Below are positions 1-14,937 of a stretch of 64,000 bases of DNA, in pieces. Within the stretch, counting starts at the first letter, position 1, and the number at the start of each line of letters is the position of its first letter. Source of the DNA: an uncultured delta proteobacterium (GTDB taxonomy: Bacteria > Myxococcota_A > Polyangia > Fen-1088); contig CAVYGB010000002.1 in NCBI GenBank assembly GCA_963767925.1, positions 1,312,001 to 1,376,000 of the forward strand. Direction: 5' to 3'. A program made the translations under genes and the position numbers. The notes under the pieces were generated by a model. That model had not been told where the DNA came from and ran no database searches. It saw only the letters and a list, made by a program, of their open reading frames with translations.

Positions 1-83
1 TGACTATAGCGATATAGGGGTGGTAGAGTTCGCGCGCCTCGACACAGAGGCGCTTTTTTCGTAACCACCAGGAGAACAGGTAA

Positions 84-575
84 ATGGAGCCGACTTTCCG
101 CGTGGGGGACCTGGCCGTCTATCCGGCACATGGCGTGGCACAGATCATCGGTGTCGAAACGCGCGAGATCTCGTCGAGCAAGCAGACCTTCTACATCCTG
201 AAGATCCTCGACAACGGGATGAAGATCATGATCCCGACGAAGAACGCCGCCGCCGTCGGCCTGCGCGAGCTCATCCGCGAGGAAGAGGTCGACGAGGTCT
301 TCGAGATCCTGAAGAGCCGGGAAGTCGCCGTCGAGGGCCAGACCTGGAACCGCCGCTACCGCGAGTACATGGAGAAGATCAAGACCGGCTCGGTCTTCGA
401 GATCGCCGAGGTCCTCCGCGACCTCCAGCGCCTCAAGGGCGACAAGGAGCTCTCCTTCGGCGAGCGCAAGATGCTCGACACCGCGCGCACCCTCCTCGTA
501 AAGGAGATCGCCGTGGCCACCAAGTCGAAGGAAGTAAAGATCGAGGAGAAGCTGAACCGCATCTTCGCCTGCTGA
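84..575 (+). CDS. cdnL: CarD/CdnL-family RNA polymerase-binding transcription factor
   Basis: F.VGD.AVYPAHGV N-terminus, WNRRYREY motif and LSFGERKML; no HMGA-like tail, so CdnL-type; GGAG RBS upstream. Confidence 0.93.
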   Translation: MEPTFRVGDLAVYPAHGVAQIIGVETREISSSKQTFYILKILDNGMKIMIPTKNAAAVGLRELIREEEVDEVFEILKSREVAVEGQTWNRRYREYMEKIKTGSVFEIAEVLRDLQRLKGDKELSFGERKMLDTARTLLVKEIAVATKSKEVKIEEKLNRIFAC

Positions 576-596
576 CCGTCGCGGCATCGCCCGCCC

Positions 597-633
597 GCAA
601 ACCCCGGAGTGTTCCTCCGGGGTTTTTGCATTT
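597..633 (+). terminator. Intrinsic terminator after cdnL
   Basis: AAACCCCGGAG-tgttc-CTCCGGGGTTT stem followed by a T-rich tail. Confidence 0.8.
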
Positions 634-687
634 CGGGGGCAAGGGAGCGACGGGGCGTCCTGAGGAGTTGGACGCAACGACAGGAGT

Positions 688-731
688 GCCTCGTGACTCC
701 GCGGACATAGGGGCCTCGTGACTCCGCGGAC
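688..731. repeat. 19-bp direct repeat, 2 copies (GCCTCGTGACTCCGCGGAC)
   Basis: Copies at 688-706 and 713-731. Confidence 0.85.
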
Positions 732-739
732 GGCTCACC

Positions 740-867
740 TCTGCGCAGGGAAACGGTGAAGTCAGCGATTTACCGCGCGGTCGCTCGGGCCATTTCCATA
801 GCATCTGCGCAGGGAAACGGTGAAGTCAGCGATTTACCGCGCGGTCGCTCGGGCCATTTCCATAGCA
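740..867. repeat. 64-bp perfect tandem duplication
   Basis: TCTGCGCAGGGAAACGGTGAAG...CATTTCCATAGCA at 740-803 and 804-867. Confidence 0.9.
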
Positions 868-1185
868 GGGGAGGGGAGGGCCCCGGAGTCCACGGCGCTC
901 GCGTCCGACCTCGACGGCCCGGCCGGGTAAACCAATCGAGTTTCGGGTTGCCAGGTGATCCCGATCGCACAGGACACCCACGCCAAACGTCTCCGTCCCG
1001 CGCCCGTCGCCACGACCGTCGCGCTTCGGCAACCCGCTTGCGTCGACTCCGCCGGCCGGGCTAAGACTCTCCGCGGGAAGATAATCTGTTCCCATCCGCC
1101 AGCGGCGACACCCACTGACTGACAGCACGAAGTCCGTCCGCGCGGCCACCAGCCAGTGATTCACCCCCGCGCTCAAGGAGGCACC

Positions 1186-2172
1186 TTGAATTCCGCACCT
1201 CTTTCTCCCTCGCTTCCCGCACCTCCTGTCGGCCTCAGGTCACTGGCGGGAATCCTCCTGCTCTTCGGTGCTCTGACCTGCTCCCCCGACTACGAGAGCG
1301 GCGTAACCGCTTGTGCGGCCACAGAACCGAAATGCCCGGCGGGGTTCTTCTGCAGCGGCATCCGGTGCTACGCACTCGGCACACCCGGAGTCAACCCCAG
1401 CGGCGAAGGTGGATCGAGCACCGTCGGCACCGGCGGCGCATCCGGCATGGGCGCTGCCCCGGCCACCAGCGGACGCGGCGGCGGATCGAACCCACCACCA
1501 CCGGAGCCCACCGGCTCTGGCGGACGCGGCGGCAGCAGCCTCCCGCCCACCGTCGGCGGGAGCACACCGCCGCCTCCGTCTGGCGGCACGACACAGCCGC
1601 CCGCAACGCCTCCCGGAATGGCCGCCCGCTGCGGAGCCAAAGTCGCGGCGGACACTTGCGACACCTGCATATTCACGATGTGCTGCCCCCAGCTGCAGGG
1701 ATGTTTCGATACGAGGGAGTGCCCCGCCTTCCTCGCCTGCCTCCGGGACTGCAACAACAACGACGTCTGCCTCGAGATGTGCATCCAGAGCAACCCCAAC
1801 GGGGCCCGCCTAGGAACCGACTATCTTCGCTGCCAGGGAAAGTGCTCCAGCCAGTGCGGCGGCGGCTCCGCACCACCAGCAATGCCCCCACCCGGCCAGG
1901 CCCCGCCTGCCATGCCGCCGGGCGCACCCGCCATGTGCGGCGGAGCGTCCGCGACCAGTCCCTGCAGCCAGTGCGGTTTCGCCGGCTGCTGCTCGGAGAT
2001 CCAGACCTGCCTCGGCAACGCCGCCTGCGCGGCCATCGTGAACTGCCTCCCCGACTGCATGAGCGACCAAGCCTGCCGAGACCAGTGCCTGACCACCAAC
2101 TCCGCCGCAGTCCCCCTCTTCAACCGCTTCGCGCAGTGCCTCAGCGACAAGTGCACAAAGGCCTGCAGCTGA
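1186..2172 (+). CDS. Cys-rich exported/lipoprotein with Gly/Pro linker and two tandem Cys-rich domains
   Basis: GGAGG RBS then TTG at 1186; hydrophobic segment ending ALTC; two C..C....CC.....C-type domains. Confidence 0.75.
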   Translation: MNSAPLSPSLPAPPVGLRSLAGILLLFGALTCSPDYESGVTACAATEPKCPAGFFCSGIRCYALGTPGVNPSGEGGSSTVGTGGASGMGAAPATSGRGGGSNPPPPEPTGSGGRGGSSLPPTVGGSTPPPPSGGTTQPPATPPGMAARCGAKVAADTCDTCIFTMCCPQLQGCFDTRECPAFLACLRDCNNNDVCLEMCIQSNPNGARLGTDYLRCQGKCSSQCGGGSAPPAMPPPGQAPPAMPPGAPAMCGGASATSPCSQCGFAGCCSEIQTCLGNAACAAIVNCLPDCMSDQACRDQCLTTNSAAVPLFNRFAQCLSDKCTKACS

Positions 2173-2283
2173 GCTGAACAGCCCCTGTTTCGTTAACCGC
2201 GGTCGAGCGGACGCCCCGGTCGCGCGCGCGACCCCACTACCCCGTCGACCGCGGTCGCGGCCCCGCTTCCGAGCACGGATCAT

Positions 2284-3492
2284 ATGCCCGAAGTCGTCGC
2301 GAACTCTCCTCCGCAAAGGACCACCATGCCTCCTCAGGTCATCTCGTGGCCAGCGTTGACGGTAGCAGCGGGTCTCCTCCTGATCATCCAACCGGCGTGC
2401 TCGGGGACAGACAGCACGGGTGCAGTGGGCACGGTCTCCTGTTCCTGCACGACCACGGGTGCTTGCGATCCCGGCCTGGTCTGTAGATCGAGCCTCTGCG
2501 TGGCCGACAGCCCCGCTGAGGGCAACGGCGCTACCGCCGGCATCACCCCGCCGCCCGAGAGGTCGATGAACGGCCCCCTCGAACCCTACCGAGGGGAGAG
2601 GTTTTCATTCGCCCGGCCCGTGGGGTGGCAGGTCATGGACGGACCTAACAATGGCCAGGACGGAAGGGAGGACAAGATGTTCATTTACCCCGAACCGGCG
2701 AGGGCAGGGGTTGGCTTCATTCGCCTCACCGCCGCGACTGTCCCATGGCACACGAACTCCCAAGCCAACGACCGCCTCGAGTACGTCCTCCGCGCTGGTG
2801 ACCAGACGGCGATCAGGCGACAGAGCTGCTGCACGGTATCCTTCTCCCACTGGTCCATGGCCATCGTCGACACCGGCAAGACCGGCTACAACCGCTTCCT
2901 GATGGTCCTGGCCAACAGCAACCGTCTCGGCTTCGAAAGTACGACTGCCGTCGAATCCCTGATCCAGGTCACCGCCGTCTCGATCGAAAAACTCGAGGAG
3001 GGCGCCCTGTGGATCGCCCTCAACATCGCCCAGAGCGTCGGCCCTCCGAACAGCTCCACCGCGGCGCTCGTTCATGGAACCTGGGAGAGCGTCCAGGGCG
3101 ACGGAACCGACTTCTTCGATGCCAGCGGCACCTTCATCGCAGGTAACACACACGGCGAATATCGCCTGTACAAGTTCCTCCCGAGTCGGCAGTACGAAAT
3201 CACCTCCGCCGTCGCCTTCCAGGGCCCCGTCACGACCAACGAAGCCATCGTCATCGACGAAGCCGGCCGCTACTCCCTGGACAGCGGCGTTCTAGCCCTC
3301 ACCCACCAAACTTGCATCGGGAGACAGTACAAGGACGGCGCCATGACTTTCCGCGGAGCCTGCGGCGAGGGAACGTCACCCTGGATTCTCCGAGTCGAAC
3401 CGCACTCTAACGGAGCCTTCCAGATGACCGGCGTCGCCTTAAACCCCGCCGGCTGGAACCGCCCCCAACTCATTGTTCCGTCGAGGAAGTAA
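2284..3492 (+). CDS. Lipoprotein with N-terminal Cys module and uncharacterised body (paralogue of 7637..9661)
   Basis: Hydrophobic stretch ending QPAC; CSCTTTGACDPGLVCRSSLC module; start could be a later ATG. Confidence 0.7.
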   Translation: MPEVVANSPPQRTTMPPQVISWPALTVAAGLLLIIQPACSGTDSTGAVGTVSCSCTTTGACDPGLVCRSSLCVADSPAEGNGATAGITPPPERSMNGPLEPYRGERFSFARPVGWQVMDGPNNGQDGREDKMFIYPEPARAGVGFIRLTAATVPWHTNSQANDRLEYVLRAGDQTAIRRQSCCTVSFSHWSMAIVDTGKTGYNRFLMVLANSNRLGFESTTAVESLIQVTAVSIEKLEEGALWIALNIAQSVGPPNSSTAALVHGTWESVQGDGTDFFDASGTFIAGNTHGEYRLYKFLPSRQYEITSAVAFQGPVTTNEAIVIDEAGRYSLDSGVLALTHQTCIGRQYKDGAMTFRGACGEGTSPWILRVEPHSNGAFQMTGVALNPAGWNRPQLIVPSRK

Positions 3493-3561
3493 CACGTGCC
3501 ATTTCGGTCATCAGGGTTGGTGGTCTCCTCGCTTGCGGGTCTCTTTAACACCATCTTGTGG

Positions 3562-3700
3562 CTCGACGGTGGGATCGCCGAGGAGCTGGTGCCAGTGCTT
3601 GGGGTCGACCTGGCTGGTCATGATGGTGGCGCGGTTGCCGCAGCGGTCCTCCAGGACCTCGAGCAGGTCGTTCTTCTCGGTCTCACGCGGGGCCGTCAGC
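3562..3700 (-). mobile_element. istB: IS21-family IstB (helper ATPase) C-terminal remnant
   Basis: DLLEVLEDRCGNRATIMTSQVDPKHWHQLLGDPT resembles the IstB LLE.LEDRY...STI.TSQ.P...WH...GDPT motif; no Walker A and no istA; boundaries approximate. Confidence 0.75.
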
Positions 3701-3921
3701 TCGGCAGACATACTCAGCCGTCGAAGAGGGGGCTGTGTCCACACAGGCCCCCGGGCGCCTAAGTCCCTCTCGCCCTCTCGCTCCTCCCACCAATCTTCGG
3801 GGCGTACACGTCTTCGGGGCATACCCGCGGCTCTCGCCTCTTACCGTTCAATCCCGTGAGGGCCGTCGATGCGCCGGCGCCGCTTGTCCACAAAACGCCC
3901 AAAGGAGTGTCGCACAGGCCC

Positions 3922-3961
3922 CGAAAGAAGAGCCCCTGACGGCCAAATGGCGTCAGGGGCT
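3922..3961 (-). terminator. Intrinsic terminator downstream of the needle-like gene
   Basis: AGCCCCTGACG...CGTCAGGGGCT 11-bp stem (3931-3961), followed on the minus strand by CTTCTTTCG. Confidence 0.7.
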
Positions 3962-3983
3962 GGATTCTCTGCCTCTTCGGCCT

Positions 3984-4469
3984 TCAAACTCGAAGATTCT
4001 GCTGAAGAGCTTTGTTGGTCTCGTGCTTCGCCTGGGCCAACTGACTCTGCAGAGTGATTGCACTGTGCCACATCTGCATAGACTCCTGCTGCTTCATCAT
4101 CTCTAGCTGAAAAAGCTTGTTCGGGTCACCCGCCGCCATCTCTTCCAACTTGGCGAATCGGTCTCCGCCTCCACCAAGAGGCCCTTCTAGCTCGCCCCCA
4201 CCGAAACCAGCACCTCCTGCTCCTGCTCCTGCTCCTGCTTGTCCCTGCCGCGACGGTGCTTCCGGCTCGGTCTGGAAGAAACCCTTGGCGGCCTCTTTGA
4301 GGTTCGGCGCGACGTCGACTACGTCCTGCGCCAGCCCGAGCCAATTTCCCGTCGCGGCGTTAACGACTCCGCTCGCGATGTCGCCCACGCCTTCGGGAAA
4401 TCCAAGGGCGTCAAAAACGCCTTCCGCTACGCTACCGAGGCCGCCGGTGATCTTGTCCAAAAAGCCCAT
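3984..4469 (-). CDS. T3SS needle/pilus (SctF)-like protein with N-terminal Gly-rich extension
   Basis: C-terminus QESMQMWHSAITLQSQLAQAKHETNKALQQNLRV aligns without gaps to the PrgI C-terminal helix (recalled from memory); GGAG RBS; no signal peptide. Confidence 0.6.
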   Translation of the reverse strand: MGFLDKITGGLGSVAEGVFDALGFPEGVGDIASGVVNAATGNWLGLAQDVVDVAPNLKEAAKGFFQTEPEAPSRQGQAGAGAGAGGAGFGGGELEGPLGGGGDRFAKLEEMAAGDPNKLFQLEMMKQQESMQMWHSAITLQSQLAQAKHETNKALQQNLRV

Positions 4470-4511
4470 TTTTATCTCCCTCTATTCGACTTTCGTTTTG
4501 TCCAATCGACG

Positions 4512-4871
4512 CTACTGAGAGGCGTTCTGCTTGGCCTCTTGAACCGCTCGAGCAAACTGAAGCAGCTCTTCTCTCATCTTGCGAATGTTCTCGTTCGCCG
4601 GATCGATACCGTGTGCCGTCTCCAACAGGACCAACGCTTCCTTGAACTGGTTCTGCTTCCGAAGCATCGTCGCATAGAGGCCGAGCGACCAAGCATCCTT
4701 GCTCTCAACGGCCAGAACCCCTTTCAACAGCTTCTGAGCGTCCTCGTACCGTTCCGCCTGGTATAAGTTGTACGCTGTCTGACGCATTTCTTGGAGAAGC
4801 GCGGGGGGAGCATCTACGACGTCCTTGACCGTCAGTGCACCCCAGGCGGGCTGTTCGCGAGCGTTGTCCAT
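4512..4871 (-). CDS. SycD/LcrH-like TPR type III secretion chaperone
   Basis: 119 aa from ATG at 4871 (AAGGA RBS); LTVKDVV...LQEMRQTAYNLYQAERYEDAQKLL...LGL resembles the SycD first TPR. Confidence 0.68.
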   Translation of the reverse strand: MDNAREQPAWGALTVKDVVDAPPALLQEMRQTAYNLYQAERYEDAQKLLKGVLAVESKDAWSLGLYATMLRKQNQFKEALVLLETAHGIDPANENIRKMREELLQFARAVQEAKQNASQ

Positions 4872-4913
4872 TGCCTTGTCCTTTCGTTCCGTTCCGTTCC
4901 TGAAAGCCAGTCC

Positions 4914-4941
4914 CTTATCGGGCCGGCCGGCGGACAGTTGC
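4914..4941 (-). promoter_or_regulatory. Putative sigma28 (FliA/WhiG)-like promoter GCAAC-N14-CCCGATAAG
   Basis: -10 element close to GCCGATAA; same motif and spacing as 17620-17647; ~43 nt upstream of the ATG. Confidence 0.5.
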
Positions 4942-5010
4942 GTGTGCGAAGAGGACGGATGCCGAATATTTCGTCCCTTCTCGCAACCCCCTGTAACCCT
5001 TGAGTTTACC

Positions 5011-6675
5011 TCAACCTCCGGCCGAACAAAAACGCCCAAGCCGCCTGGCCAGCCGTAACTGTTCTCCAGCACGCTTGGCGCTCATGAGATTGAGCACATG
5101 CCGCTGCATCTCGAGGAGTGCGTCCCGGTGACCCCCCTTGACATCGCCCTCAAGTCCTGCTGTGAGACCGCGTAGAGCGGGCCCCAGTTCTCCCCTGCGG
5201 ATGAACGTGTAAGCAAGATTCAGATTTGTCTGCGGATCCGAAGGATCAATCCCCTGCGCGCAAACATAAGCCTCATGCGCCTCCCCGAACCGCGCTAGCG
5301 AATAGAGGAGGTCCCCACGAATGTTCCAAAGCCAGGCGCTGTACCAACGATTCAGACGCAGCGCCGCCCCGACCCACTCCAGTCCCAAATCCCGCTCCTC
5401 CGCCTGATTGGCAACCATCGCTGCCTCACCGAGCAGCGCCCAGTCTCTAGGACTCTCCAACAACGCCGCGCGATAAGACTCGAGCCCTTCTCTTAGTCGT
5501 CCCATCTTCAGGTTCTCCCGAGACCGCCTCAATGATAGGGCACGCCGCCGGCCAGACGCGGAGTCAAAAAGCCTCCCGAACGCCAAGGCTGTCAATCGCA
5601 ACTCTCGACGGGTGACGAGCCTGGAGTGAACCGCTTGCTCATCGTCTCCTACAGGACTCGATACGGTCAACGCCTGTCCGACCAACGTGTCTTCCAGCAC
5701 AGGGAAATTCACACCCATCGCCGAGGTAACACCAAAGCGCTCGGCCGTGAGTGGTCGCCCCGACGAGGACGACCGCGTGACACCGTAGTCGTTGATGAGA
5801 ATGAAACCATCATCGGATATAGCCTGCGCGACTCCCGACAGATACTCGAACGCTCCGAAATTCCATGCAGCAGCTTCGCCCTCGCGAAGGTCCGTTGCCA
5901 GCCGAGAAACCCCGGGGATCTGGCCAACACCGTCGACCCGAAAATCCATCTGATAGTCAAAAAGCGTGAGAAGCGGGAACAGCTTCTCGAGGTCCTGAGA
6001 GTCACCCGATACGGCGACGGCTCTAATGTCATCGACACACATTCCAGTAAAGGACCGAACTACCTCTGAGTCGTCTATCAACTCGGTGCGAATGCAGAGT
6101 TGCTCGATAACACCAGCAGTGGTCTTACGCACCAACGCCGCCGGAAGAACACACAGAAGATAGTTGCAGAAAACAGCGCGAACGCCGGTCTCAACCCTCA
6201 ATACGCTCCGAGCATCGGCCAAGTGAGCCCGCACATGGCCTCGATGACTCTCAAACAACTTCATCTTCCCCCATTGTTCAAGAGTCGCCGGAGAACCATC
6301 GGTCACGACGAACTGAAGACGCTCGTAGAAATCCTCTTGGGCGTCATCACAGAGGGCCCGGAACGCGTCCAAAAAGTGAAGTGCAAAGAGACCAGTGCCT
6401 GCACCGTGTTCCACCACCGTGATCACTCCACTTGGCCTCGTTTCCCGAAGGTTCGCTAGAAGCAGACGTGCCGCATCCTCGGAAAGACGGCCGCTGTTGT
6501 TAACCCGATAGGGAACCTCTTTCCGGATGAAGGGTTTCACGCCTTCCAGGCGCCAGTAGAGCTCAGAAACTCGCCATTCGAGACACTCGCTTATGGGTCG
6601 AAAATCCTCGATGAGTCGAGCGCCGCGAGGGTCCTCCACCCGCTGCGGGCCCCTACATTTCGCCTCCATTGTCAT
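5011..6675 (-). CDS. MidA/NDUFAF7-like SAM-dependent methyltransferase with C-terminal TPRs
   Basis: VVEHGAGTG SAM motif, FYERLQFVVTDGSP and GFILINDYG; TPR-like helices at the C-terminus. Confidence 0.7.
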   Translation of the reverse strand: MTMEAKCRGPQRVEDPRGARLIEDFRPISECLEWRVSELYWRLEGVKPFIRKEVPYRVNNSGRLSEDAARLLLANLRETRPSGVITVVEHGAGTGLFALHFLDAFRALCDDAQEDFYERLQFVVTDGSPATLEQWGKMKLFESHRGHVRAHLADARSVLRVETGVRAVFCNYLLCVLPAALVRKTTAGVIEQLCIRTELIDDSEVVRSFTGMCVDDIRAVAVSGDSQDLEKLFPLLTLFDYQMDFRVDGVGQIPGVSRLATDLREGEAAAWNFGAFEYLSGVAQAISDDGFILINDYGVTRSSSSGRPLTAERFGVTSAMGVNFPVLEDTLVGQALTVSSPVGDDEQAVHSRLVTRRELRLTALAFGRLFDSASGRRRALSLRRSRENLKMGRLREGLESYRAALLESPRDWALLGEAAMVANQAEERDLGLEWVGAALRLNRWYSAWLWNIRGDLLYSLARFGEAHEAYVCAQGIDPSDPQTNLNLAYTFIRRGELGPALRGLTAGLEGDVKGGHRDALLEMQRHVLNLMSAKRAGEQLRLARRLGRFCSAGG

Positions 6676-6860
6676 TTCACCTCGCTCTCCTCTCGTCGGG
6701 CCGGCACGCGTCGCGCCGCGCTCTTCATGTGAGCTGCCTCGTCAGGACACTACACCAGCCCAGCGTGTCATTAAGCCTTGACTTGTGTCGTGCGCCAGGA
6801 TATTCGAAGAGGCCCGGAAACGCGCCACTTCTCTTCACCGCTCCACTGCGAGGAATGGAA

Positions 6861-7640
6861 ATGTCTACAGCTCTAGGGACGAGATGTACGGCTCTGCTTG
6901 CGATCGCGTGCGTCGCCACCCTCCCATCGATCGCCCAAGGACAGTACGCAGGGCCCGACGGCTATCTTTGGAACAACCCCGTGTCAGCCTCAGCGGCGCT
7001 ATTTATCCAGCAGAGCATCATGTCTGAGACCATGGGTTTGGGCGCCAATGCCAAGCAGCGCCTTCTAGGAGACACGGCTAAGCGCCGCAGTCCTTCCTCC
7101 CATCGCCAACCAGGCGGTACGACAGCATTTACGCCGAGACGCCATACCGTTCTGGACCAATTCACAGGCACCCGAAGAGACCAAGCAACCAAACTCTTGG
7201 ACGACTGTCAAAAGGTGTATGCCAAAACCTTAGCGCTGACAGGAGCGGCCCAGCCCTCCGAACTCAATGACCTCTCAACTTCGACCGCCTTCTACTTCAT
7301 CATCGCTCACTATATCTATTGGCAGGGTCAATCCCAGGTTCCTGCGGACCCTCAGCCCGCGCATTTTCAGACTCTCCGAAACAAACTCCGCGTCCGGTAT
7401 GTCTCCAACGGAAGTATGATTGGTAAGAGCGACACCGAAAAGCAAGCCGCTCACGACAGCTTGGTTCTTTCCGCTTGCATACCCATGGTGCAATTCACTC
7501 AGGCCAAGAAGGCGAACAGCGAGCCAGGCAAACAAACGGCGCGAAAGGCCGCCGCAGACCTGCTAACCAGGCTCGGTCTTTCTCCGAATGCGATGCGATT
7601 TCAGCCCGACGGTACCGTCCTCATTCGTGGTATCGATTGA
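6861..7640 (+). CDS. Exported helical protein (DUF6683-like)
   Basis: Signal peptide ending AQG; NDL....AFY....Y.Y and SD.EKQ patterns; family call tentative. Confidence 0.55.
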   Translation: MSTALGTRCTALLAIACVATLPSIAQGQYAGPDGYLWNNPVSASAALFIQQSIMSETMGLGANAKQRLLGDTAKRRSPSSHRQPGGTTAFTPRRHTVLDQFTGTRRDQATKLLDDCQKVYAKTLALTGAAQPSELNDLSTSTAFYFIIAHYIYWQGQSQVPADPQPAHFQTLRNKLRVRYVSNGSMIGKSDTEKQAAHDSLVLSACIPMVQFTQAKKANSEPGKQTARKAAADLLTRLGLSPNAMRFQPDGTVLIRGID

Positions 7641-9661
7641 AACCCCTTCTGCCCTCTCGGATAGCGGCGATCGGACCCCGAGTCTTCGTCACTCTGGCGT
7701 TGGCGGCATTTTCGGCTGGCTGCCCGGGACCGGGAGAACGTTGCACCTTGGGCACCGACGGTTGCGCCTGCACATCATCGCTGACCTGCGATCTGGGCTT
7801 GGTCTGTGCGTCCCAGGTCTGCCGGGGCCCTTCCCCGGGGGCCGCCGCAGGAAGTAGCGCCGACTCCGTATCACTCGAGCCGTTCAGGGCACCGGATATC
7901 ACATTCGCGAAGCCGAAGGGCCTGCTTCGGAAGGGTAACGATGCTCGCGTCTACGTCTTCGAGGCACCGAATCTGGACGAGGCCCCCATCACGGGGTTTC
8001 AGGTCGGTTACCTGGGACACATCCGCTCCTCGCAGGTTCCATCTGCCCTTCAGGTGCTAGAGAAGGTCATCACGAGCGAAAAGCTCACGTCCGTCGGGAC
8101 ACCGGCGTCTTCGCCTGAATACGCCACCTCGCTGGTGGATACCGGAAAGCCCGGTCCTTTTCGGTATGCTCGGATATCAGCGCTACGTCACTGGAAACTC
8201 GTTAGCGAAGGCGTCGCCGCTGTCCACCAGCCCCCTCCGCTCTCCCTAGACCTTCTGCTCCTTCAGATCAGCTTTCCAGACTCGGAGATCGACGAGAAGC
8301 TCAAGCTTCCGTACCTCCTCAAATCCATCGCGTGGGGCGTGGCCTTGCCGCCCGACACCCTTTCTCTGGACGAGCTATCGGGTACCTGGGAGAGCTCCAG
8401 TGGTGGTTTCCCCAGCGACGCCTTCACTTCGGAAGGTATCTACACCGGGTCCTTCCAGTCAGGGAGCCTCTTCCGAATTGCTCTCGATCAAACATGGACC
8501 TACGACCTCCTCACCTCCTTCTCTGTAAGCTGTGCCGGCGTCCCTGGCTGTGTCCTCGAGGGAATCGCCACGACAAGCAGTCGAGGGCGCTATCTGGCGG
8601 AGGGCGGCACGATCACCTTCGAGCCTTCCCGCTGCCAGTATCGTTTCTACGACAGGAACGTCCAGCTGAAGACGATGGCGGGATGTTCGCCGGACATGCT
8701 GCCAGCTACCTTGCGCATGGGCCGCGGTCCGCGAGGCGGGTTGTCCGTCGGCGGCCTTGGTACCGTCCCGGTGAACGCCGACCAGCAGAAACTCCTCCAC
8801 GCTGCCAGGAAGGGCGGGCCAGGCGGCACCTGGGACGCTCCAGTTGAAGGCCCTCCTCGTCCCGTCGATGAGACCTTCAATATCTGCGGCCTCTCCGAGA
8901 GTGAGCCGAACGATGAGCCGACCCAAGCCACCCCGGTGGTCGCGCAGCAGCGAGGATGTCTCCCGACCAGCCAGGACGTCGACCTCTTCCGCGCAACCGC
9001 CCCGGCCTCTGATCTCGGGGGCGGCTACTACGAAGGCTCGCTCTCCAGCGTCAACGCGCTCAGCCTGGAGGTTTATCCAGGAGCAGACCTTTCCGCTTCG
9101 AATCGTCTCTTGGCTGCCAGTACAGGGCGTGGTGATCGGACGTACTTCTACTGGCCAGGTGCCCCCGGTCAGACCTACACGTTGCGATTGAACACCGCTT
9201 CGCGCTCCTGGTGTGCCTACGACCTCGACATCGCCTACCACAAGGTAGACGACGCTTTCGAGGTCAACGACACTATCGACCAAGCCACCCCGATTGCCGT
9301 CGGTTCCCCCGTCGACGCCTTCTTCTTTGCCGGCAAGCGCCCGGGCACGCCGCCGATAAACTACGAGGACTGGTACTCTTTTCAGCTCCATCCTGGGCTG
9401 GCGACCATCCGCATCGATGTCCCGGCCGATATCGCTGCCGGAGTGAAGGTCATCGGTCCCTCCGGTTCGGGGCCGGAGCGCTATGTCTTCAACTCGTCTC
9501 CTGGCGAAGACTACCTCCTCGCCGGCTTCACGGTCATGACTTCGGGCACCTACCGGGTGAGGCTCACCTATGTCCCGGCCCCCGGGGGAGTGGCCATCGT
9601 AAGAGGGATGGTTCCCCCGAGCTTTACGACACCGTACCGCCTCCTGGTGACCCAGCCTTGA
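7637..9661 (+). CDS. Lipoprotein: Cys module + uncharacterised domain + two PPC-like beta domains
   Basis: TTG overlaps the upstream stop (TTGA); lipobox FSAGC; CTLGTDGCACTSSLTCDLGLVCASQVC; ESEPND...QAT and DAFEVND...QATPI repeats. Confidence 0.72.
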   Translation: MKPLLPSRIAAIGPRVFVTLALAAFSAGCPGPGERCTLGTDGCACTSSLTCDLGLVCASQVCRGPSPGAAAGSSADSVSLEPFRAPDITFAKPKGLLRKGNDARVYVFEAPNLDEAPITGFQVGYLGHIRSSQVPSALQVLEKVITSEKLTSVGTPASSPEYATSLVDTGKPGPFRYARISALRHWKLVSEGVAAVHQPPPLSLDLLLLQISFPDSEIDEKLKLPYLLKSIAWGVALPPDTLSLDELSGTWESSSGGFPSDAFTSEGIYTGSFQSGSLFRIALDQTWTYDLLTSFSVSCAGVPGCVLEGIATTSSRGRYLAEGGTITFEPSRCQYRFYDRNVQLKTMAGCSPDMLPATLRMGRGPRGGLSVGGLGTVPVNADQQKLLHAARKGGPGGTWDAPVEGPPRPVDETFNICGLSESEPNDEPTQATPVVAQQRGCLPTSQDVDLFRATAPASDLGGGYYEGSLSSVNALSLEVYPGADLSASNRLLAASTGRGDRTYFYWPGAPGQTYTLRLNTASRSWCAYDLDIAYHKVDDAFEVNDTIDQATPIAVGSPVDAFFFAGKRPGTPPINYEDWYSFQLHPGLATIRIDVPADIAAGVKVIGPSGSGPERYVFNSSPGEDYLLAGFTVMTSGTYRVRLTYVPAPGGVAIVRGMVPPSFTTPYRLLVTQP

Positions 9662-9829
9662 CGTTCAGGTGCACGGCACTGGCTTTTGAGAGCGCCCCTC
9701 TGGTCAAACAGTGCAAGAGCGTGTTCGACTCTAACGGGCCTCCTTCAGTCTTCCCTCTCCCTCACGGTCTCGATGTCGAAACAGCCCGGGTGAATACCGG
9801 GTGTGCCGCGTGAGGCGCGTCCGCTTCAT

Positions 9830-11122
9830 TCACCACCGGGGTTGCACGTTGTTTCCAGAAGTCGTCAGCTGATCCAGTGTCCCGGTCGCGGGATCGATGG
9901 CGAACAGGTCGGCCCTCGGAGGTTCCCCGATGGCCATCCCGACCACGGCGCGTCCGTCCCCGACGACGGTCACCCACAGGACATCGCTGACGTCGTTCGT
10001 TGGCCGCAGGATCACGTTCATCTGGCCGCTGACACGATCCCAGACCGCAAGCCCGGCCCGGCGTCCCGACTGACCGCCCGCCTTGTATTCAAACTCCGCG
10101 ACCACCAGCGCACCCGAGCCATCTTTGAGCCATGCCGGCGTTTCGCTGCCGATCAAGAGAGGCGAGGCCGTCGTGCGGTCCGCCGCCACCAGCCGCTGTT
10201 GCTCGACGGGCGTCGTGCTCCATTCGTACAGGCCTGCCTCCGTCGAACCCGCGCAGATCTTCTCCACTACCAGCATGGACTGTCCGCTCGGACTGGGGGC
10301 CGGATGGCCGCTCACCTGGCAGGAGGGGTGCAGCTTGAACTGGAGGCTTCCCTCCGACAGAGACGCGAACCTTCTGCCCTCCGGCGGCAATAGGTCCAGT
10401 CGGTCGCTCCGCGATCCACTCGGTCAGCACCTGAAAAAAGAGCGTCTTCCCGTCTGCCGACCACGCGGGGGCGTTGACCGCCGTATGGAAGCCGCGCAGC
10501 CTGCAGCGCCCGGACATGCAGATCTCGTCTCCGGGGCAGGTCGAGCTGTTCGCACACATCTCTCCTGATCCGTTCCCCGTCGTGAACGGCGGGGTGAACC
10601 GGACGAACTGTTTTCCGTCCACGCTCACCGCCCAGATCGCTCCGGTGGGGAATCCTGCCGACAGGTCAGCTTGCGACGGACGAAAGCTGCTGGAGGCGAA
10701 CGCGATCGCCTTCCGATCCGGCGAGACGGCCATGCCTTTGATCCTCGAGCCACGGCCAACGTTGTCATCGAGCTGGCTGATCAGTCGCTCCTGCCGCGTG
10801 CTCAGGTTGTAGGAATAGAGATGAGACACCAAGGGCGCCTCTGTCCCCCCCTTTTGATCAGCTTCTCGAACACCACCTCGTCCGCCGGTAGGGGTTCGAC
10901 TGCGTTCCCACCCCCCTGCGTAGGCCCTCCCGGAGGCTCACCAGCACTGCTGCTCCCGGAGGGTCCCAAGCACCGACCTTCCACGCACATCCGGCCAAGA
11001 TCACAGAGACCCGCGCTCGTACACGTACAGCTCTCGGTGCCGACGGCGCACTCCTCACCGGAGTCGGGACAGCCACTGGCCAACCCTCCAAGTAACGCGA
11101 GAATCAACAGCTTCGTCCGCAT
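9830..11122 (-). CDS. Lipoprotein: Cys module + TolB/PD40-like beta-propeller, split by two frameshifts
   Basis: Lipobox LASGC; CAVGTESCTCTSAGLCDLGRMCVEGRC; AVSPDRKAIAF, PAWSADGKTLFF and QPRW spread over three overlapping frames. Confidence 0.68.
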
Positions 11123-11210
11123 GAAGAGCTCCTCGTCCGTCTACGCGTTGAATGCGGCCCGGCCGCAGGCTGCCAGGCTACCATCAGTTGGCCCCACCAG
11201 ACGCCAAGCA

Positions 11211-11240
11211 TTGACACGCTCTGTTCTGCCCGGATAGACA
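11211..11240 (+). promoter_or_regulatory. Putative sigma70 promoter TTGACA-N18-TAGACA
   Basis: Perfect -35 hexamer upstream of the FAD oxidase gene. Confidence 0.4.
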
Positions 11241-11271
11241 GTCTCTGCCTCATGCCGATCTGGATGCGCGG

Positions 11272-12639
11272 GTGATACGGGGGCTCTTCCGGGGCACCGT
11301 CCTCGAACCGGGGGACGCCGACTACACCTTGGCCTGCGCGGGGTTCAACGGTGAGACCACGCGGCGGCCCAGGTTGATCGTCCGCTGTGTCGACGATGGC
11401 GATGTCCAGGCGGCCGTCCGGCTCGCGGTGAACGAAGGCTTGCCGCTATCGGTGAGGGGAGGGGGCCACTCGATCGGTGGGTACGGGTCGGTGGACGGAG
11501 GCATCGTGGTCGACCTCCGCTCGAGGAGGCGGGTTTCGCTCGATCGAGAGGACGATGCAATTTCTGTGGAAGGCGGCTGTACCTGGGGCGAGGTGATCTA
11601 CCACTTGACTCGCGAGCACCGAGCCACGCCCGGTGGCTTCAGCGCTCGGGTGGGAGTTGGCGGCCTCACGCTCGGTGGCGGGTACGGGCTGCTGTCCCGA
11701 CTCCACGGGCTCGCCGCCGACAACCTCGTCCATGCCGACGTCGTCACGTCCGACGGCAACATGGTTCGAGCGGGAGCCGGAGACGCCGACCTGCTCTGGG
11801 CCATGAGGGGGGCGGGAGCCAACTTCGGGGCTGTCACTTCGCTGCGCTTGCGGGTGCACGCGGTGCCGCCCTTGCTGGTCGCTCAGGCCGTTTACCCACT
11901 GGACCAGGCGGGCGACCTCCTCCGGCGCTACGCCGAGCTCATTCCGGCCCTTCCGGATGCCACCACAGTCTACCTGGGCCTGGCCGGTCAGCCTGCGGGG
12001 GCGGGCGTCTTGACCTTCCTTGGCTTCCACCTCGGCGATCGGGCCGAGGCGGAGCGTCTGCTGGGTCCACTGGCGCGCCTCGGGCGGCCGCTCGTCGCTC
12101 AGATGCAGGCGGCGGCCTACTGGCGCATTCACGTTCCGGGGCCCGATAATTTCCTTCAGGAGGGCCATCACCACGCCTGGAAGGCGCATTTCCTGGCGTC
12201 GCTGGACGACGACGCCCTGGGGACTATCGCCGAGCACGCCCTTCAGGCCAGGAACCAGGATCTGCTGATCATGATCGAGCACCTGGGCGGCGCCATCGGC
12301 CGGGTCCGACCGGACGCGGCCGCATTTCCGCATCGCCACGCGTCCTTCGGAGTCGTCACCGCGGTGAAGTGGCGACCACCAGGCGCCGCCGATGACGCCC
12401 GCGCTATTCAGGGCAGCCTCCATCGGGCGCTGGCGCCCCGATCCATCGGGACCTATGTCAACTACGTCGGTAGTCCCCACGGTCCACTCGAGGTCGAGGC
12501 TGCCTACGGCGCGAACTTGCCGCGCCTCCGCCAGCTCAAGCGTCGCTTCGACCCCAGCAACCTCTTCCGCAGCAACGTGAACATCCTCCCCGCGGAGGCC
12601 TGCACGCCACTGCCCGGCGCTGGCCCGGAGCCCCGCTGA
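11272..12639 (+). CDS. FAD-binding oxidoreductase (VAO/berberine-bridge family)
   Basis: VRGGGHS FAD motif, VGVGGLTLGGGYG, WAMRGAGANFG and C-terminal YVNY...LKRRFDPSNLFR. Confidence 0.92.
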   Translation: MIRGLFRGTVLEPGDADYTLACAGFNGETTRRPRLIVRCVDDGDVQAAVRLAVNEGLPLSVRGGGHSIGGYGSVDGGIVVDLRSRRRVSLDREDDAISVEGGCTWGEVIYHLTREHRATPGGFSARVGVGGLTLGGGYGLLSRLHGLAADNLVHADVVTSDGNMVRAGAGDADLLWAMRGAGANFGAVTSLRLRVHAVPPLLVAQAVYPLDQAGDLLRRYAELIPALPDATTVYLGLAGQPAGAGVLTFLGFHLGDRAEAERLLGPLARLGRPLVAQMQAAAYWRIHVPGPDNFLQEGHHHAWKAHFLASLDDDALGTIAEHALQARNQDLLIMIEHLGGAIGRVRPDAAAFPHRHASFGVVTAVKWRPPGAADDARAIQGSLHRALAPRSIGTYVNYVGSPHGPLEVEAAYGANLPRLRQLKRRFDPSNLFRSNVNILPAEACTPLPGAGPEPR

Positions 12640-14264
12640 TGGACGTCCTCCTGGTGACCGATCTCGAGGGAGTGGCCGGAGTCGACGATGTCGGGGACCT
12701 CCTCGAGGGGACCCCAGGTTTCCCGGCCGCTCGAAAGCTCCTCGAGCGCGAGGTGGAGGCCGCCTGTCTGGGACTCCGGGAAGGTGCTGCCCGCGCAGAC
12801 AAGGTCCTCGTCTCCGACAGCCACCGCGGCGGCCCCTCTCCCACGCTCGACCCCCGAAATTTGCCGCCCGGAGCGCTCTTCTTCCGCGGCGCCGACGCCT
12901 ACGATCCATCGCTGCTCGACCGGGTGGACGCTGTCGCCTGTCTCGGCATGCACGCAGGTGACCGAGGCTTCACCCCTCACACAATCGATCTCTCCTGCCT
13001 GTGGGAGACGGAAGGACGTCCGGTCAGCGAGACTGACCTCTTGCTCGGCCTCGCCGCAGAACGGGGCTTACCGGTTGTCTTCGTCGCCGGCGACGATGCC
13101 CTGGCCCCCGGGGTTCCCTTCGTCCCCACCAAGACGGCGCTGTCGGCGATTCGCGCACGCTCGCGTGATCCAGCGGCTGTGGCGACGGAGATCCGCCGCG
13201 CCGCTGCGGGCAAGCCCGTGCCGGCGCCGGGTCTGACCGGCACTCTGGCAGTGAGGTTCCGCAGTCGATGGATGGCCGAGGTCGCCGAGCGCGCCGGAGG
13301 GCTACGCCTCGACGAGACGGCGGTTCGCCTTCCGGAGGGCTCTCTCTCGCAACGAATCGCCCACGGTCGCCGTCTCGTACACGCCGTGTCGGACCCGATG
13401 TTCGCGGCCTTCCGTCCCTGGGCGTTGCCCGAGGAAGCCTCCACCCTGGCAGCGCGCTCCTTCGAGAGGAGAGACCCAACGCCTCGGCAGTCCGAGGCCC
13501 GGCGCGCCCTGACTGCCTTCCTGTCGGGCTCCGAGGGTCCCGACGATTGGTGTCGAGCGAACCGCGCCCTCACCCTCCACATGCTCGAAGGTCATGCCCC
13601 CGCGTTCTTCGCTGCCGAGGACCTGGCCCCCGTCCTCGGCGAGGCCGTGGAACGGCTGGCCTTGGTCCCCCGAGACTTTCCGCCGGCGCTCGATCCGGTC
13701 CAGGCCATGGCCCGGCTCGACGCCATCTACGTACTTCATGAGCGCGGCCACCCTGCCCCGGTGGACGGGGACCAGCTGGCCCGCTTCGCGTCGACCACGC
13801 GTTCCTCGAACGTGCCTTTCGCGTGGTTGCTCGGCGAGATCGCTCATCAGATCGGCCTCCCGGGCCGGCTCGCCCTCCCTCCCCGCCCCTACCGACGGGG
13901 CATGCGGATCATCGACCTCTTCTGGGTGACGCACCAGATCCTCCTGGAGACCCGCTATCTTCGCAAGCCGCTCCCTGCCCGTGGCTGGGAGACCGCCACG
14001 GAAGAGCTCCTCCTGGCCACCCCCTTCGTCGTCGAAAACGGCCACCTGGACCTCGCCGCCCAGCTCTGCTTTTGCCTCACAACCGCTGGGGAGGGACGGG
14101 CCCCGGAACGTGAGCGCCTGCTCGCGAGCCTGGCGTCTCATCAAAACTCTCGTGGGGAAGTCATCGAGGACTCCACCGCCAGGCTCCGGTCTGCCGACGT
14201 TCGACGCCGCCTCGAGACCCATTGCACGGCTGCGGCCCTCCTCGCCTTTGCGACTGCCTGCTGA
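12639..14264 (+). CDS. M55 (DppA-like) D-aminopeptidase domain fused to a C-terminal helical domain
   Basis: DLEGVAGV, VSDSH, GMHA, HT and GDD motifs in the N-terminal half; TGATG overlap with the upstream gene. Confidence 0.75.
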   Translation: MDVLLVTDLEGVAGVDDVGDLLEGTPGFPAARKLLEREVEAACLGLREGAARADKVLVSDSHRGGPSPTLDPRNLPPGALFFRGADAYDPSLLDRVDAVACLGMHAGDRGFTPHTIDLSCLWETEGRPVSETDLLLGLAAERGLPVVFVAGDDALAPGVPFVPTKTALSAIRARSRDPAAVATEIRRAAAGKPVPAPGLTGTLAVRFRSRWMAEVAERAGGLRLDETAVRLPEGSLSQRIAHGRRLVHAVSDPMFAAFRPWALPEEASTLAARSFERRDPTPRQSEARRALTAFLSGSEGPDDWCRANRALTLHMLEGHAPAFFAAEDLAPVLGEAVERLALVPRDFPPALDPVQAMARLDAIYVLHERGHPAPVDGDQLARFASTTRSSNVPFAWLLGEIAHQIGLPGRLALPPRPYRRGMRIIDLFWVTHQILLETRYLRKPLPARGWETATEELLLATPFVVENGHLDLAAQLCFCLTTAGEGRAPERERLLASLASHQNSRGEVIEDSTARLRSADVRRRLETHCTAAALLAFATAC

Positions 14265-14322: not shown

Positions 14323-14937
14323 CTACTGAGATCGGGGCGGCCGGGATTCGATCTTGCCGAGGGGGAGGACGGGTTTGTCGGGGGGAGGGGGGAGCTCGGC
14401 GGGTTTGCGGGTGGGATCGGTGTCGTCGATCCAGCGCAGGGTGATGAGGCGGAGCTTCATGTTGCGGGGGAACGTCGAGCGAACCAGCTGCTTGAGCTGG
14501 TCGGGAGTGGCGCCCTCCCGGCGGCGTTTGAGAAGGGTTCGCACCTCGGGTGGGGGATCGATCTCGGCACGGCCGAGATCGGCCGTCAGGGACAGCTCTT
14601 CGGGAGTGTATTCCTTCAGGGCGCGCGTGACAGCGGATGGGTCTCCGGGCGGGGCGCCCCGCTGGGCCTGGTCGGGACGCAGCGGGGGCATGCGGGTGGC
14701 CGGACGGGCAGGCGCTGCGGCCTGGCGAGCGGCAGGTACCGTCGGCTCATCGGTGGGCGAGGGGGGAGGGGCGGCCTCGGAGGGCGCCTGTGCGGTGGGC
14801 GGCACCGGATCCGCGGTCACGGCCGGGGCGGGCGCGGGCGCGGGCACGGAGACAACCGCCGGCCGAGGGCGCAGCCAGAAGACCGCTGCCGCTGCGGCCA
14901 GGGCCAGCAGCACCGGCACGATGATCCGCGCCTTCAT
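14323..14937 (-). CDS. Membrane-anchored Pro-rich hypothetical protein
   Basis: N-terminal TM helix, Pro/Ala linker and small C-terminal domain; ATGA overlap with the clostripain gene. Confidence 0.65.
   Translation of the reverse strand: MKARIIVPVLLALAAAAAVFWLRPRPAVVSVPAPAPAPAVTADPVPPTAQAPSEAAPPPSPTDEPTVPAARQAAAPARPATRMPPLRPDQAQRGAPPGDPSAVTRALKEYTPEELSLTADLGRAEIDPPPEVRTLLKRRREGATPDQLKQLVRSTFPRNMKLRLITLRWIDDTDPTRKPAELPPPPDKPVLPLGKIESRPPRSQ

Follow-up and report, generated by a model that had tools for sequence, protein, structure and literature searches.

A candidate type III secretion chaperone/substrate pair with an N-terminally extended needle-family subunit in an uncultured myxococcotal genome

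INTRODUCTION

What is the role of a needle-like protein whose gene stands next to that of a small tetratricopeptide repeat (TPR) protein, in a stretch of DNA with no other gene for type III secretion? This question is raised by a 64-kb stretch, here called the window (C2:1312001-1376000, on contig 2), of the genome of an uncultured member of the Myxococcota, whose assembly comprises 9.34 Mb on 13 contigs with 71% GC and is 84% complete. A preliminary description of the window had grouped three adjacent genes into a portable cassette that would deliver a filament or translocator subunit, its SycD-like chaperone and a dedicated methyltransferase to a T3SS (type III secretion system) encoded elsewhere. 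We find that two of these genes, encoding a small TPR protein (P0002) and a 161-aa protein (P0001), probably constitute a T3SS chaperone/substrate pair, in which an N-terminally extended needle-family subunit and its TPR chaperone would work with a non-flagellar T3SS whose genes are dispersed; the evidence is entirely computational, and the steps of export, chaperoning and polymerisation are inferred. The third gene, encoding a methyltransferase-TPR protein (P0003), is most likely an independent neighbour of the pair. All three open reading frames (ORFs) proved to be intact and co-oriented on the minus strand (3984-6675):

3984..4469, minus strand: putative needle-family gene, P0001, 161 aa
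4512..4871, minus strand: small TPR gene, P0002, 119 aa from ATG 4871; a longer ORF, 4512-5072, gives 186 aa from GTG
5011..6675, minus strand: methyltransferase-TPR gene, P0003, 554 aa

RESULTS

The 161-aa protein and its family

Taken alone, P0001 matches no Pfam or NCBIfam family, and a single close homologue (P0004) was found among 5.8 billion clustered proteins. Weak matches in relatives led to two loci, one in the same genus (L007) and one in the same family (L010), where a P0001-like protein follows a small TPR protein. A profile built from eight sequences and run against 1.84 billion representatives retrieved 266 of them at E ≤ 1e-3, of which 85 reached E ≤ 1e-10. The members of this family range from 140 to 490 aa and have a common architecture: a conserved N-domain (...LPE..GD........TGN...), a linker of highly variable length and a needle-like C-terminus with the consensus ...DP..M..LQ.RM..I..MNQL.T.ML.A.H.M.M.IIQN.RA. 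Conservation of the N-domain does not depend on that of the tail, and no model in Pfam or NCBIfam covers this domain. P0001 shows the same layout, with a three-helix N-domain carrying LPE..GD...TGN, a Gly/Ala-rich disordered linker at about residues 66-103 and a needle-type tail, in which a short helix is joined through a GDP turn to a long C-terminal helix whose last residues are ...ALQQNLRV.

SctF needle subunits have a conserved extreme C-terminus of the IIQNFR type. Models of SctF from two libraries match the P0001 family: Pfam T3SS_needle_F (PF09392) finds 24 of 88 aligned members at E ≤ 0.01 (best 3.4e-9) and NCBIfam TIGR02105 finds 18 of the 88 (best 2.1e-7), which, at the level of the family, supports the needle-like character that the preliminary description had given to the 161-aa protein. 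The closest relatives of P0001, 34-48% identical to it, reach 17-21 bits on T3SS_needle_F, under the cut-off of 29.4, and weak EspA matches are also seen among its relatives. Searching PDB sequences with the eight-sequence profile gave nothing significant. The family profile matched a 43-residue chain of PDB entry 7y6c (2.2e-5); the depositor labelled this chain as a needle co-chaperone, and to us the part of it that aligns resembles a piece of a needle subunit. The same profile aligned in register with PrgI 43-83 through the final residue, including ...AIIQNFR, at an E-value of 0.32. In the ESM Atlas, the clusters nearest to P0001 are 'hypothetical protein' clusters of Myxococcota, one with PF09392 on 17% of its members, and an HrpA cluster lies farther away, at 0.82.

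Modelling of P0001 by AlphaFold2 (AF2) depended on the alignment: eight sequences gave an unusable model (mean predicted local distance difference test, pLDDT, of 48.6) and the 88-sequence alignment gave a pLDDT of 72.5. The latter model begins with three N-terminal helices and is disordered over residues 66-103; next come a short helix (104-113), the GDP turn and finally the helix 116-160, where pLDDT is >90. Model and sequence together thus display the helix-turn-helix with conserved extreme C-terminus that is a hallmark of SctF. The size is different, as SctF has about 70-90 aa and no extra domains and P0001 has 161 aa with N-domain and linker. P0001 is a member of this large family, still without a name, whose proteins are probably N-terminally extended relatives of SctF/HrpA/EspA-like needle and pilus subunits.

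The small TPR protein and its pairing with P0001

Alignments of homologues with the longer P0002 ORF begin only at Met67, and the true start is therefore most likely ATG 4871, which has AAAGGA 7 nt upstream. P0002 contains three TPRs (TPR_19, 3e-10); its identity to the TPR protein beside the family gene is 46% in L007 and 40% in L010. In 28 of 42 other loci with a family member, a TPR gene on the same strand is found at a distance of no more than 400 bp; the TPR hidden Markov model (HMM) used for this count was built partly from the same loci, and six loci outside it were also detected. By BLASTP, P0002 matches eight of these neighbouring TPR proteins.

Complex prediction for P0001 and P0002 yielded a median score of 0.67 (0.72, 0.60 and 0.67), compared with 0.00 for the best of three controls; the partner pLDDT was 53 or higher, and the runs had 41% or more of their contacts in common. 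When the tool was calibrated, 116 of 157 solved complexes and 2 of 215 mismatched pairs attained this mark. The predicted interface brings the TPR groove together with P0001 residues 127-144 and 36-74; TPR-like chaperones hold needle subunits in a comparable way. P0002 is thus a small TPR protein encoded beside its putative client, with an interface predicted in silico, as in the TPR-chaperone class of T3SS, and adjacency and complex model support P0002 as the predicted chaperone of P0001. To this extent the chaperone role assigned to the small TPR protein in the preliminary description is supported. Its classification as SycD-like is not: the best NCBIfam match of P0002 is indeed the SycD/LcrH model TIGR02552, at 27.1 bits against an equivalog cut-off of 104.8. 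Among the partner TPR proteins, 19 of 21 match TIGR02552, all under the cut-off (best E 1.7e-16), and the PDB matches of P0002 are generic, with SycD at E 0.026.

The pair in other genomes

Scanning a genome collection recovered seven loci in metagenome-assembled genomes (MAGs) of Acidobacteriota, five of Pyrinomonadaceae and two of Acidobacteria/Acidobacteriota, and one contig of the same genus as the host. The Pyrinomonadaceae MAG G061 carries a homologue with 49% identity over 51 aa of the N-domain (E 6e-10), which stands at the end of a T3SS cluster in the gene order homologue (153 aa), 157-aa TPR protein, 71-aa needle-sized protein, DUF6683 protein and 185-aa protein. Upstream lies a complete-looking non-flagellar T3SS cluster (L039/L040/L018, G061:C37), in which SctV scores 709.9 bits (cut-off 692) and SctN and SctR are likewise above their cut-offs. 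This cluster further holds SctJ, L, Q, S, T and U, together with FliJ-like, FHA/SctD-like, SLT lytic transglycosylase and FliA-like sigma factor genes, an HrpA-like 155-aa protein and a second SycD-like TPR protein. The statement that no cassette like this had been described was overstated as regards the pair, which belongs to a family of 266 clusters and is found within ordinary-looking T3SS clusters of Acidobacteriota.

In G061 four proteins (155, 192, 153 and 71 aa) with a common needle-type C-terminus and two small TPR proteins were observed. We considered P0001 as a fusion of two Pyrinomonadaceae genes and dropped the idea, as the 153-aa homologue has a needle-type tail of its own; when P0001 was compared by BLASTP with the 71-aa needle-like protein, no alignment was returned.

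Within the Myxococcota the family is present in 26 of 201 sampled genomes, including all 19 genomes of one family; these tallies are floors, coming from a stricter first look at the 201-genome sample. FHIPEP was found in 26/26 family-positive genomes and in 91/175 of the remaining ones, a comparison in which related genomes are not independent.

T3SS and flagellar genes elsewhere in the host genome

A full flagellar cluster is located at C8:555-582 kb. Non-flagellar T3SS core genes are dispersed, singly or in small groups. FliO-like, SctR, SctS, SctT and SctU genes lie beside a ribosomal protein operon (C8:2004.3-2007.6 kb), with SctR at 226.2 bits against a cut-off of 208.6, and SctN stands alone at C8:1123705-1125027 (611.2 bits, cut-off 604.75). 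SctJ scores 143.3 bits, under the cut-off of 161.95, in a group at C8:3091216-3092616, and is preceded by a FliA-like sigma factor and a 179-aa protein with a rod/needle-like tail ending ...VKQTLGTQV. An SctV/FlhA-family gene is found at C2:1269278-1271284 beside rplU-rpmA-obg, 42 kb upstream of the window. An apparatus encoded elsewhere, as the preliminary description had supposed, is hence represented by SctN and SctR above their cut-offs, by SctJ, SctS, SctT and SctU and by an SctV-type gene; the lack of any export apparatus in the genome, which that description would have taken as a refutation, is therefore not what was seen. Regarding the genomic context of SctF, the host has non-flagellar T3SS genes and a homologue lies within the G061 T3SS cluster.

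Two solitary genes of a second, HrpA-like needle-tail branch were noticed at C3:34024-34518 and C3:51961-52659; their products end ...DTAKSAVSNIRS, and no TPR gene is adjacent. In other genomes, relatives of these genes are followed by that of a 138-aa protein.

Signals, base composition and origin of the locus

The pair is flanked by the following features:

3921..3961, minus strand: intrinsic-terminator-like hairpin, judged by fold energy and sequence, closing the TPR/needle-like pair
3511..3822, minus strand: IS21 IstB helper gene fragment (scar), by IstB_IS21 match, directly downstream of the terminator
6855..7640, plus strand: DUF6683 gene (PF20388), divergent from the methyltransferase gene
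84..575, plus strand: CarD/CdnL-family gene (CarD_C 5.2e-32, CarD_TRCF_RID)

The P0002 gene lies 42 nt upstream of the P0001 gene, whose ATG is preceded by GAGGGAG at 6 nt. Just after the P0001 stop codon a hairpin is formed by an 11-bp perfect core stem (3931-3961), followed by CUUCUUUC; its stability is -38.4 kcal/mol (z -4.12), and none of 200 shuffled sequences was as stable. The list of a consensus terminator scanner does not contain it. The 3' end of the methyltransferase gene has a weak terminator-like hairpin, and 139 bp separate its stop codon from the TPR start. A sigma-70 promoter scan returned no site, and inspection by eye of the region upstream of the TPR gene revealed no sigma-54 promoter.

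The ORF at 3511-3822 (minus strand) matches IstB_IS21 (PF01695) at 27.4 bits (cut-off 24.1), and covers profile positions 170-208 of 238; no IstA was found. GC amounts to 0.54-0.61 over 3751-7750 and stays at or below 0.66 over about 1-11250, compared with 0.70-0.72 for the 13 contigs, and GC at third codon positions (GC3) of the stretch is about 0.62-0.67. With 37 query proteins against all ORFs of at least 45 aa, other T3SS or flagellar genes in the window gave 0 matches at E ≤ 1e-3, and matches to the family HMMs were confined to the module genes. On all these points, that is the three co-oriented genes, terminator, IS21 scar, low GC and lack of further T3SS or flagellar genes, the preliminary description was accurate. 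The same-genus genome G001 carries no close copy of the pair; its own pair is 24% identical to that of the window in one alignment (A3), 28% in two (A1 and A4) and 31% in another (A5). Because of the low GC, the IS21 scar and this different pair, only 24-31% identical, in a sister species, the pair was probably acquired horizontally, and the idea of an acquired stretch finds support in the low GC and the IS21 fragment.

The DUF6683 protein of the window scores 55.0 bits on PF20388 (cut-off 23.6), and its probable start at Met63, which gives position 6855, provides a signal-peptide-like N-terminus. A relative in L018 (108.9 bits) is 23% identical (E 3e-6). DUF6683 occurs in four further Pyrinomonadaceae/Acidobacteriota loci (L015, L018 (=L040), L019 and L021), and its gene follows the pair in Pyrinomonadaceae T3SS clusters; the protein is likely an accessory factor, secreted or periplasmic.

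The cdnL gene of the window, confirmed by Pfam, is 3.4 kb away from the pair. In L010 (259-834) and L063 (2303-2827), which come from two further genomes of this class, a reading frame that resembles cdnL, as judged by eye, also adjoins the pair. The position next to cdnL might be ancestral, or else a hot spot for insertions, although the window copy has foreign GC.

The methyltransferase-TPR gene

P0003 matches Methyltransf_28 (PF02636) at 41.5 bits (cut-off 23.3) and has TPRs fused to its C-terminus. The SAM-binding (S-adenosylmethionine-binding) motif EHGAGTG is intact, with G91, G93 and G95 invariant in 16 homologues. In total 240 homologues were found; the 120 listed cover 93-100% of the query at 39-50% identity (own entry excluded), and source names of homologues include Blastocatellia, Bryobacterales and Binatia. 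A PDB search with the methyltransferase family profile returned TPR proteins only and no solved relative of the catalytic domain.

The MidA-type identity given to this enzyme in the preliminary description stands, given the PF02636 match and the intact GxGxG; a dedicated link to the pair is not supported. No methyltransferase homologue was seen in 46 other family loci (~219 kb), and none of 80 metagenomic methyltransferase loci (flanks of up to 9 kb) contains a family member, DUF6683 or a T3SS core gene. Five pair-carrying genomes, namely G001 (same genus), G006 and three Pyrinomonadaceae MAGs, yielded no P0003 homologue; among 60 relatives a single one has it, as does a single genome out of 121 from the Pyrinomonadaceae class. 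The three-gene cassette was not recovered in either direction. A dedicated role of P0003 on the needle-like protein is unsupported by these comparisons.

Clustering of neighbours by longest ORF around methyltransferase homologues was too noisy in high-GC DNA. Markers of the type VI secretion system (T6SS; VgrG/PAAR/DUF2169) were detected at E<1e-20 in 25 of the 80 methyltransferase loci (L082-L161), and in 11 of the 38 that have at least 2 kb on either side. In genome G023 (L051, G023:C335) the methyltransferase is flanked by DUF2169 and a Tox-PAAR-like gene, with VgrG, Imm49 and Imm11 close by. The T6SS spike island in which the family recurs is conserved, with the order DUF6484, a 437-aa HEAT-like protein, DUF2169, methyltransferase-TPR, Tox-PAAR-like, and VgrG with immunity genes.

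DISCUSSION

Proposed function of the pair and alternative explanations

In the mechanism that we favour, the last 45-60 residues of P0001 would supply the needle-type turn and polymerisation helix, and the first 65 residues a family-specific helical domain tethered by the disordered linker. While P0001 is still in the cytoplasm, P0002 would embrace its C-terminal helix together with a portion of its N-domain and thereby keep it monomeric until export, which would proceed via the non-flagellar-type apparatus (SctN, SctJ, SctRSTU, SctV-type) encoded at scattered sites of the host genome. Once exported, the C-terminal helices might pack, as needle subunits do, into a filament or cap with the N-domains pointing outward.

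A number of points weigh against this reading. Neither P0001 as a whole nor its residues 101-161 match a needle model of Pfam or NCBIfam at E ≤ 1, and its relation to SctF is transitive, via matches of the family. The Foldseek check proposed in the preliminary description came back empty for the 88-sequence model of P0001 (no PDB match at E ≤ 0.001), and a wide fold search with VIA-align returned generic coiled-coil rows only, all at Z ≤ 5.7; these searches are uninformative as to fold. The likeness of the TPR protein to SycD/LcrH is generic, because the unrelated TPR model PEP_TPR_lipo likewise matches 19 of the 21 partners. The complex prediction was fed with alignments of our own making, and its score may reflect memory of solved needle/TPR-chaperone complexes. 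On the host side, the SctV-type gene reads in four frames, the T3SS search left out secretin, SctD and SctQ, and the genome is 84% complete. Low GC and IS scar also allow the pair to be an unused passenger.

Such a passenger would be inert DNA, its two genes intact by chance in a host without a complete injectisome. The GC of 0.54-0.61 against 0.71, the GC3, the IS21 fragment, the divergent pair of G001 and the broken SctV-type gene would suit this explanation, which we nevertheless consider unlikely: all frames of the pair are open, ribosome-binding sites and a terminator are present, and the dispersed SctN, SctJ and SctRSTU genes are intact. The frame breaks in the SctV-type gene may be assembly errors, because other genes are split likewise; matches to the FliI/YscN model and of ATP-synthase type elsewhere in the genome also run across frames, which suggests indel errors in the assembly instead of pseudogenes. 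A pair wholly unrelated to type III secretion, consisting of a coiled-coil protein and a generic TPR partner, is very unlikely indeed. The lack of a curated family for P0001 alone, the generic TPR matches and the coiled coils of the fold search would agree with this, whereas the needle matches of the family in two libraries and the PDB, in register with the C-terminus, the homologues within a T3SS cluster and the FHIPEP gene of every family-positive myxococcotal genome speak for a link to type III secretion.

Alternatively, P0001 might be a T3SS substrate that builds no filament, such as a tip, inner-rod, translocator-like or regulatory protein, with the needle-type helix used for docking only and a glycine-rich amphipathic N-domain that acts on a target membrane or cell wall. 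The Pyrinomonadaceae clusters encode a separate 71-aa needle-sized protein beside the homologue, and in the same clusters 155-aa HrpA-like and 192-aa proteins have similar C-termini, so that the several paralogues with this tail probably have different roles. Translocators are the classical clients of SycD-type TPR chaperones, and the EspA matches among relatives and the independent conservation of the N-domain also point this way. In contrast, library scans detected neither a transmembrane segment nor a known tip or translocator family in P0001, and no shorter needle gene was found in the host, where the family HMM matched P0001 and one contig 3 ORF only; we regard a non-filament role as a minor possibility that deserves to be kept in mind. 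The original proposal of a portable three-gene cassette, in which the methyltransferase-TPR protein, ahead of export, would modify the needle-like protein or the complex that this forms with its chaperone, looks quite improbable. It could draw on the adjacency and common orientation of the genes at a spacing of 139 bp, on the TPR domain of the enzyme, which could bind a helical client, on the intact GxGxG, and on the T6SS spike genes that adjoin the P0003 family elsewhere and make a role on secreted or appendage proteins conceivable. The mutual absence of the two families from each other's loci, the lack of the enzyme in the pair-bearing genomes named above, its rarity among relatives and in the Pyrinomonadaceae class and the weak terminator-like hairpin at the 3' end of its gene count against it. 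The chaperone/substrate pair thus remains our preferred interpretation, and the window is reinterpreted as holding a two-gene pair, perhaps with DUF6683, instead of a three-gene system.

Comparison with known systems

Needle subunits with TPR-like chaperones are known from YscF with YscG/YscE and from PscF with PscG/PscE. P0002 and P0001 resemble such systems in that the P0001 family has the turn-plus-helix with an IIQNxR-type end and family-level matches to PF09392 and TIGR02105, and in that a small all-helical TPR protein is encoded alongside and predicted to hold the helix. However, P0001 is twice as long as SctF, has a conserved 65-residue N-domain and a disordered linker and is itself under the needle models; no YscE-like second chaperone was seen, and P0001 lies away from core T3SS genes. 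Longer subunits that retain a needle-like C-terminal helix are also found in the HrpA pilus and the EspA filament. Distant paralogues match HrpA_pilin at 22.8 bits (cut-off 25) and NCBIfam T3SS_pilin_HrpA below threshold, and the EspA matches of relatives are weak and below threshold as well. In contrast to both, the family has the N-domain motif LPE..GD...TGN, which the family libraries do not know from either, and its hosts, Myxococcota and Acidobacteriota of the soil, are no pathogens of plants or animals.

With class II chaperones of the SycD/LcrH type P0002 shares its size, three TPRs, an adjacent, putatively secreted client and TIGR02552 as best NCBIfam match; the score is far under the cut-off (27.1 versus 104.8 bits), and the client is needle-like, not a hydrophobic translocator. 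P0003 is above the Methyltransf_28 cut-off like the MidA/NDUFAF7 arginine methyltransferases and differs from these by the C-terminal TPR fusion. The flagellin methylase FliB gave rise to the idea that an appendage subunit may have its gene next to that of the enzyme which modifies it; in contrast to that arrangement, the P0003 family does not co-occur with the needle-like family.

The host shares its phylum with the Myxococcus 'needleless' T3SS*, or 'Myxo' non-flagellar T3SS (NF-T3SS), and has T3SS-type core genes without an obvious needle gene, as they do; it differs in the presence of a divergent SctF-family gene. Passages of PMC3459982 and PMC12075869 state that SctF, secretin and translocon are missing from myxobacterial T3SS-like systems, and parts of PMC12075869 and PMC11509652 term the myxobacterial and bradymonabacterial systems needle-less. 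The relevant sections of Abby and Rocha (2012; PMC3459982) describe short and long 'Myxo' NF-T3SS loci with conserved gene order, not scattered; scattered NF-T3SS loci, comparable to the situation in our host, are mentioned there for Chlamydiales, Hamiltonella defensa and a Yersinia plasmid, and NF-T3SS are said to have been found until then only in Chlamydiae, Proteobacteria and Verrucomicrobia. Our search of the literature on T3SS or needle proteins in Acidobacteriota, Myxococcota and Bradymonas found no description of the P0001 family; Supplementary Table S4 of PMC11509652 (bradymonabacterial T3SS genes), which was outside this search, may bear on the point.

As far as these passages of PMC3459982 and PMC12075869 go, the needle-less status of myxobacterial T3SS underlies evolutionary and mechanistic models. 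The unnamed family of 266 representative clusters, together with its TPR chaperone, offers a concrete candidate for the 'missing' filament and suggests that needle subunits can carry large N-terminal domains. The methyltransferase-TPR family is set apart from the pair and has its recurrent home in T6SS spike islands. As a tentative extension, the T3SS of Myxococcota and Acidobacteriota, so far termed needle-less or not described at all, might use a divergent, N-terminally extended SctF that earlier screens missed, served by one TPR chaperone and frequently encoded at a distance from the core genes, with the outward N-domain providing a new surface function such as contact with prey or cell wall; P0001 would then be a horizontally moved copy, and the methyltransferase-TPR family a broader modifier of appendage proteins, of the T3SS here and of T6SS spikes elsewhere.

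Other genes in the window

Two paralogues of no known family (mutual E 3e-16) flank the module, at 2284-3492 (plus strand, 402 aa, probably a lipoprotein) and 7475-9661 (plus strand, 728 aa); further paralogue entries are located at 10802-11122 and 14934-17270, both on the minus strand. Weak relatives of the flanking paralogues are found on contig 13 and on contig 3, where a needle-like paralogue is some 3 kb away. At the distal end of the low-GC stretch lies a PD40 beta-propeller fragment (10089-10832, minus strand), after which a FAD/BBE oxidase gene (11272-12639) and a D-aminopeptidase-like gene (12639-14264), both on the plus strand, follow at the GC content of the host.

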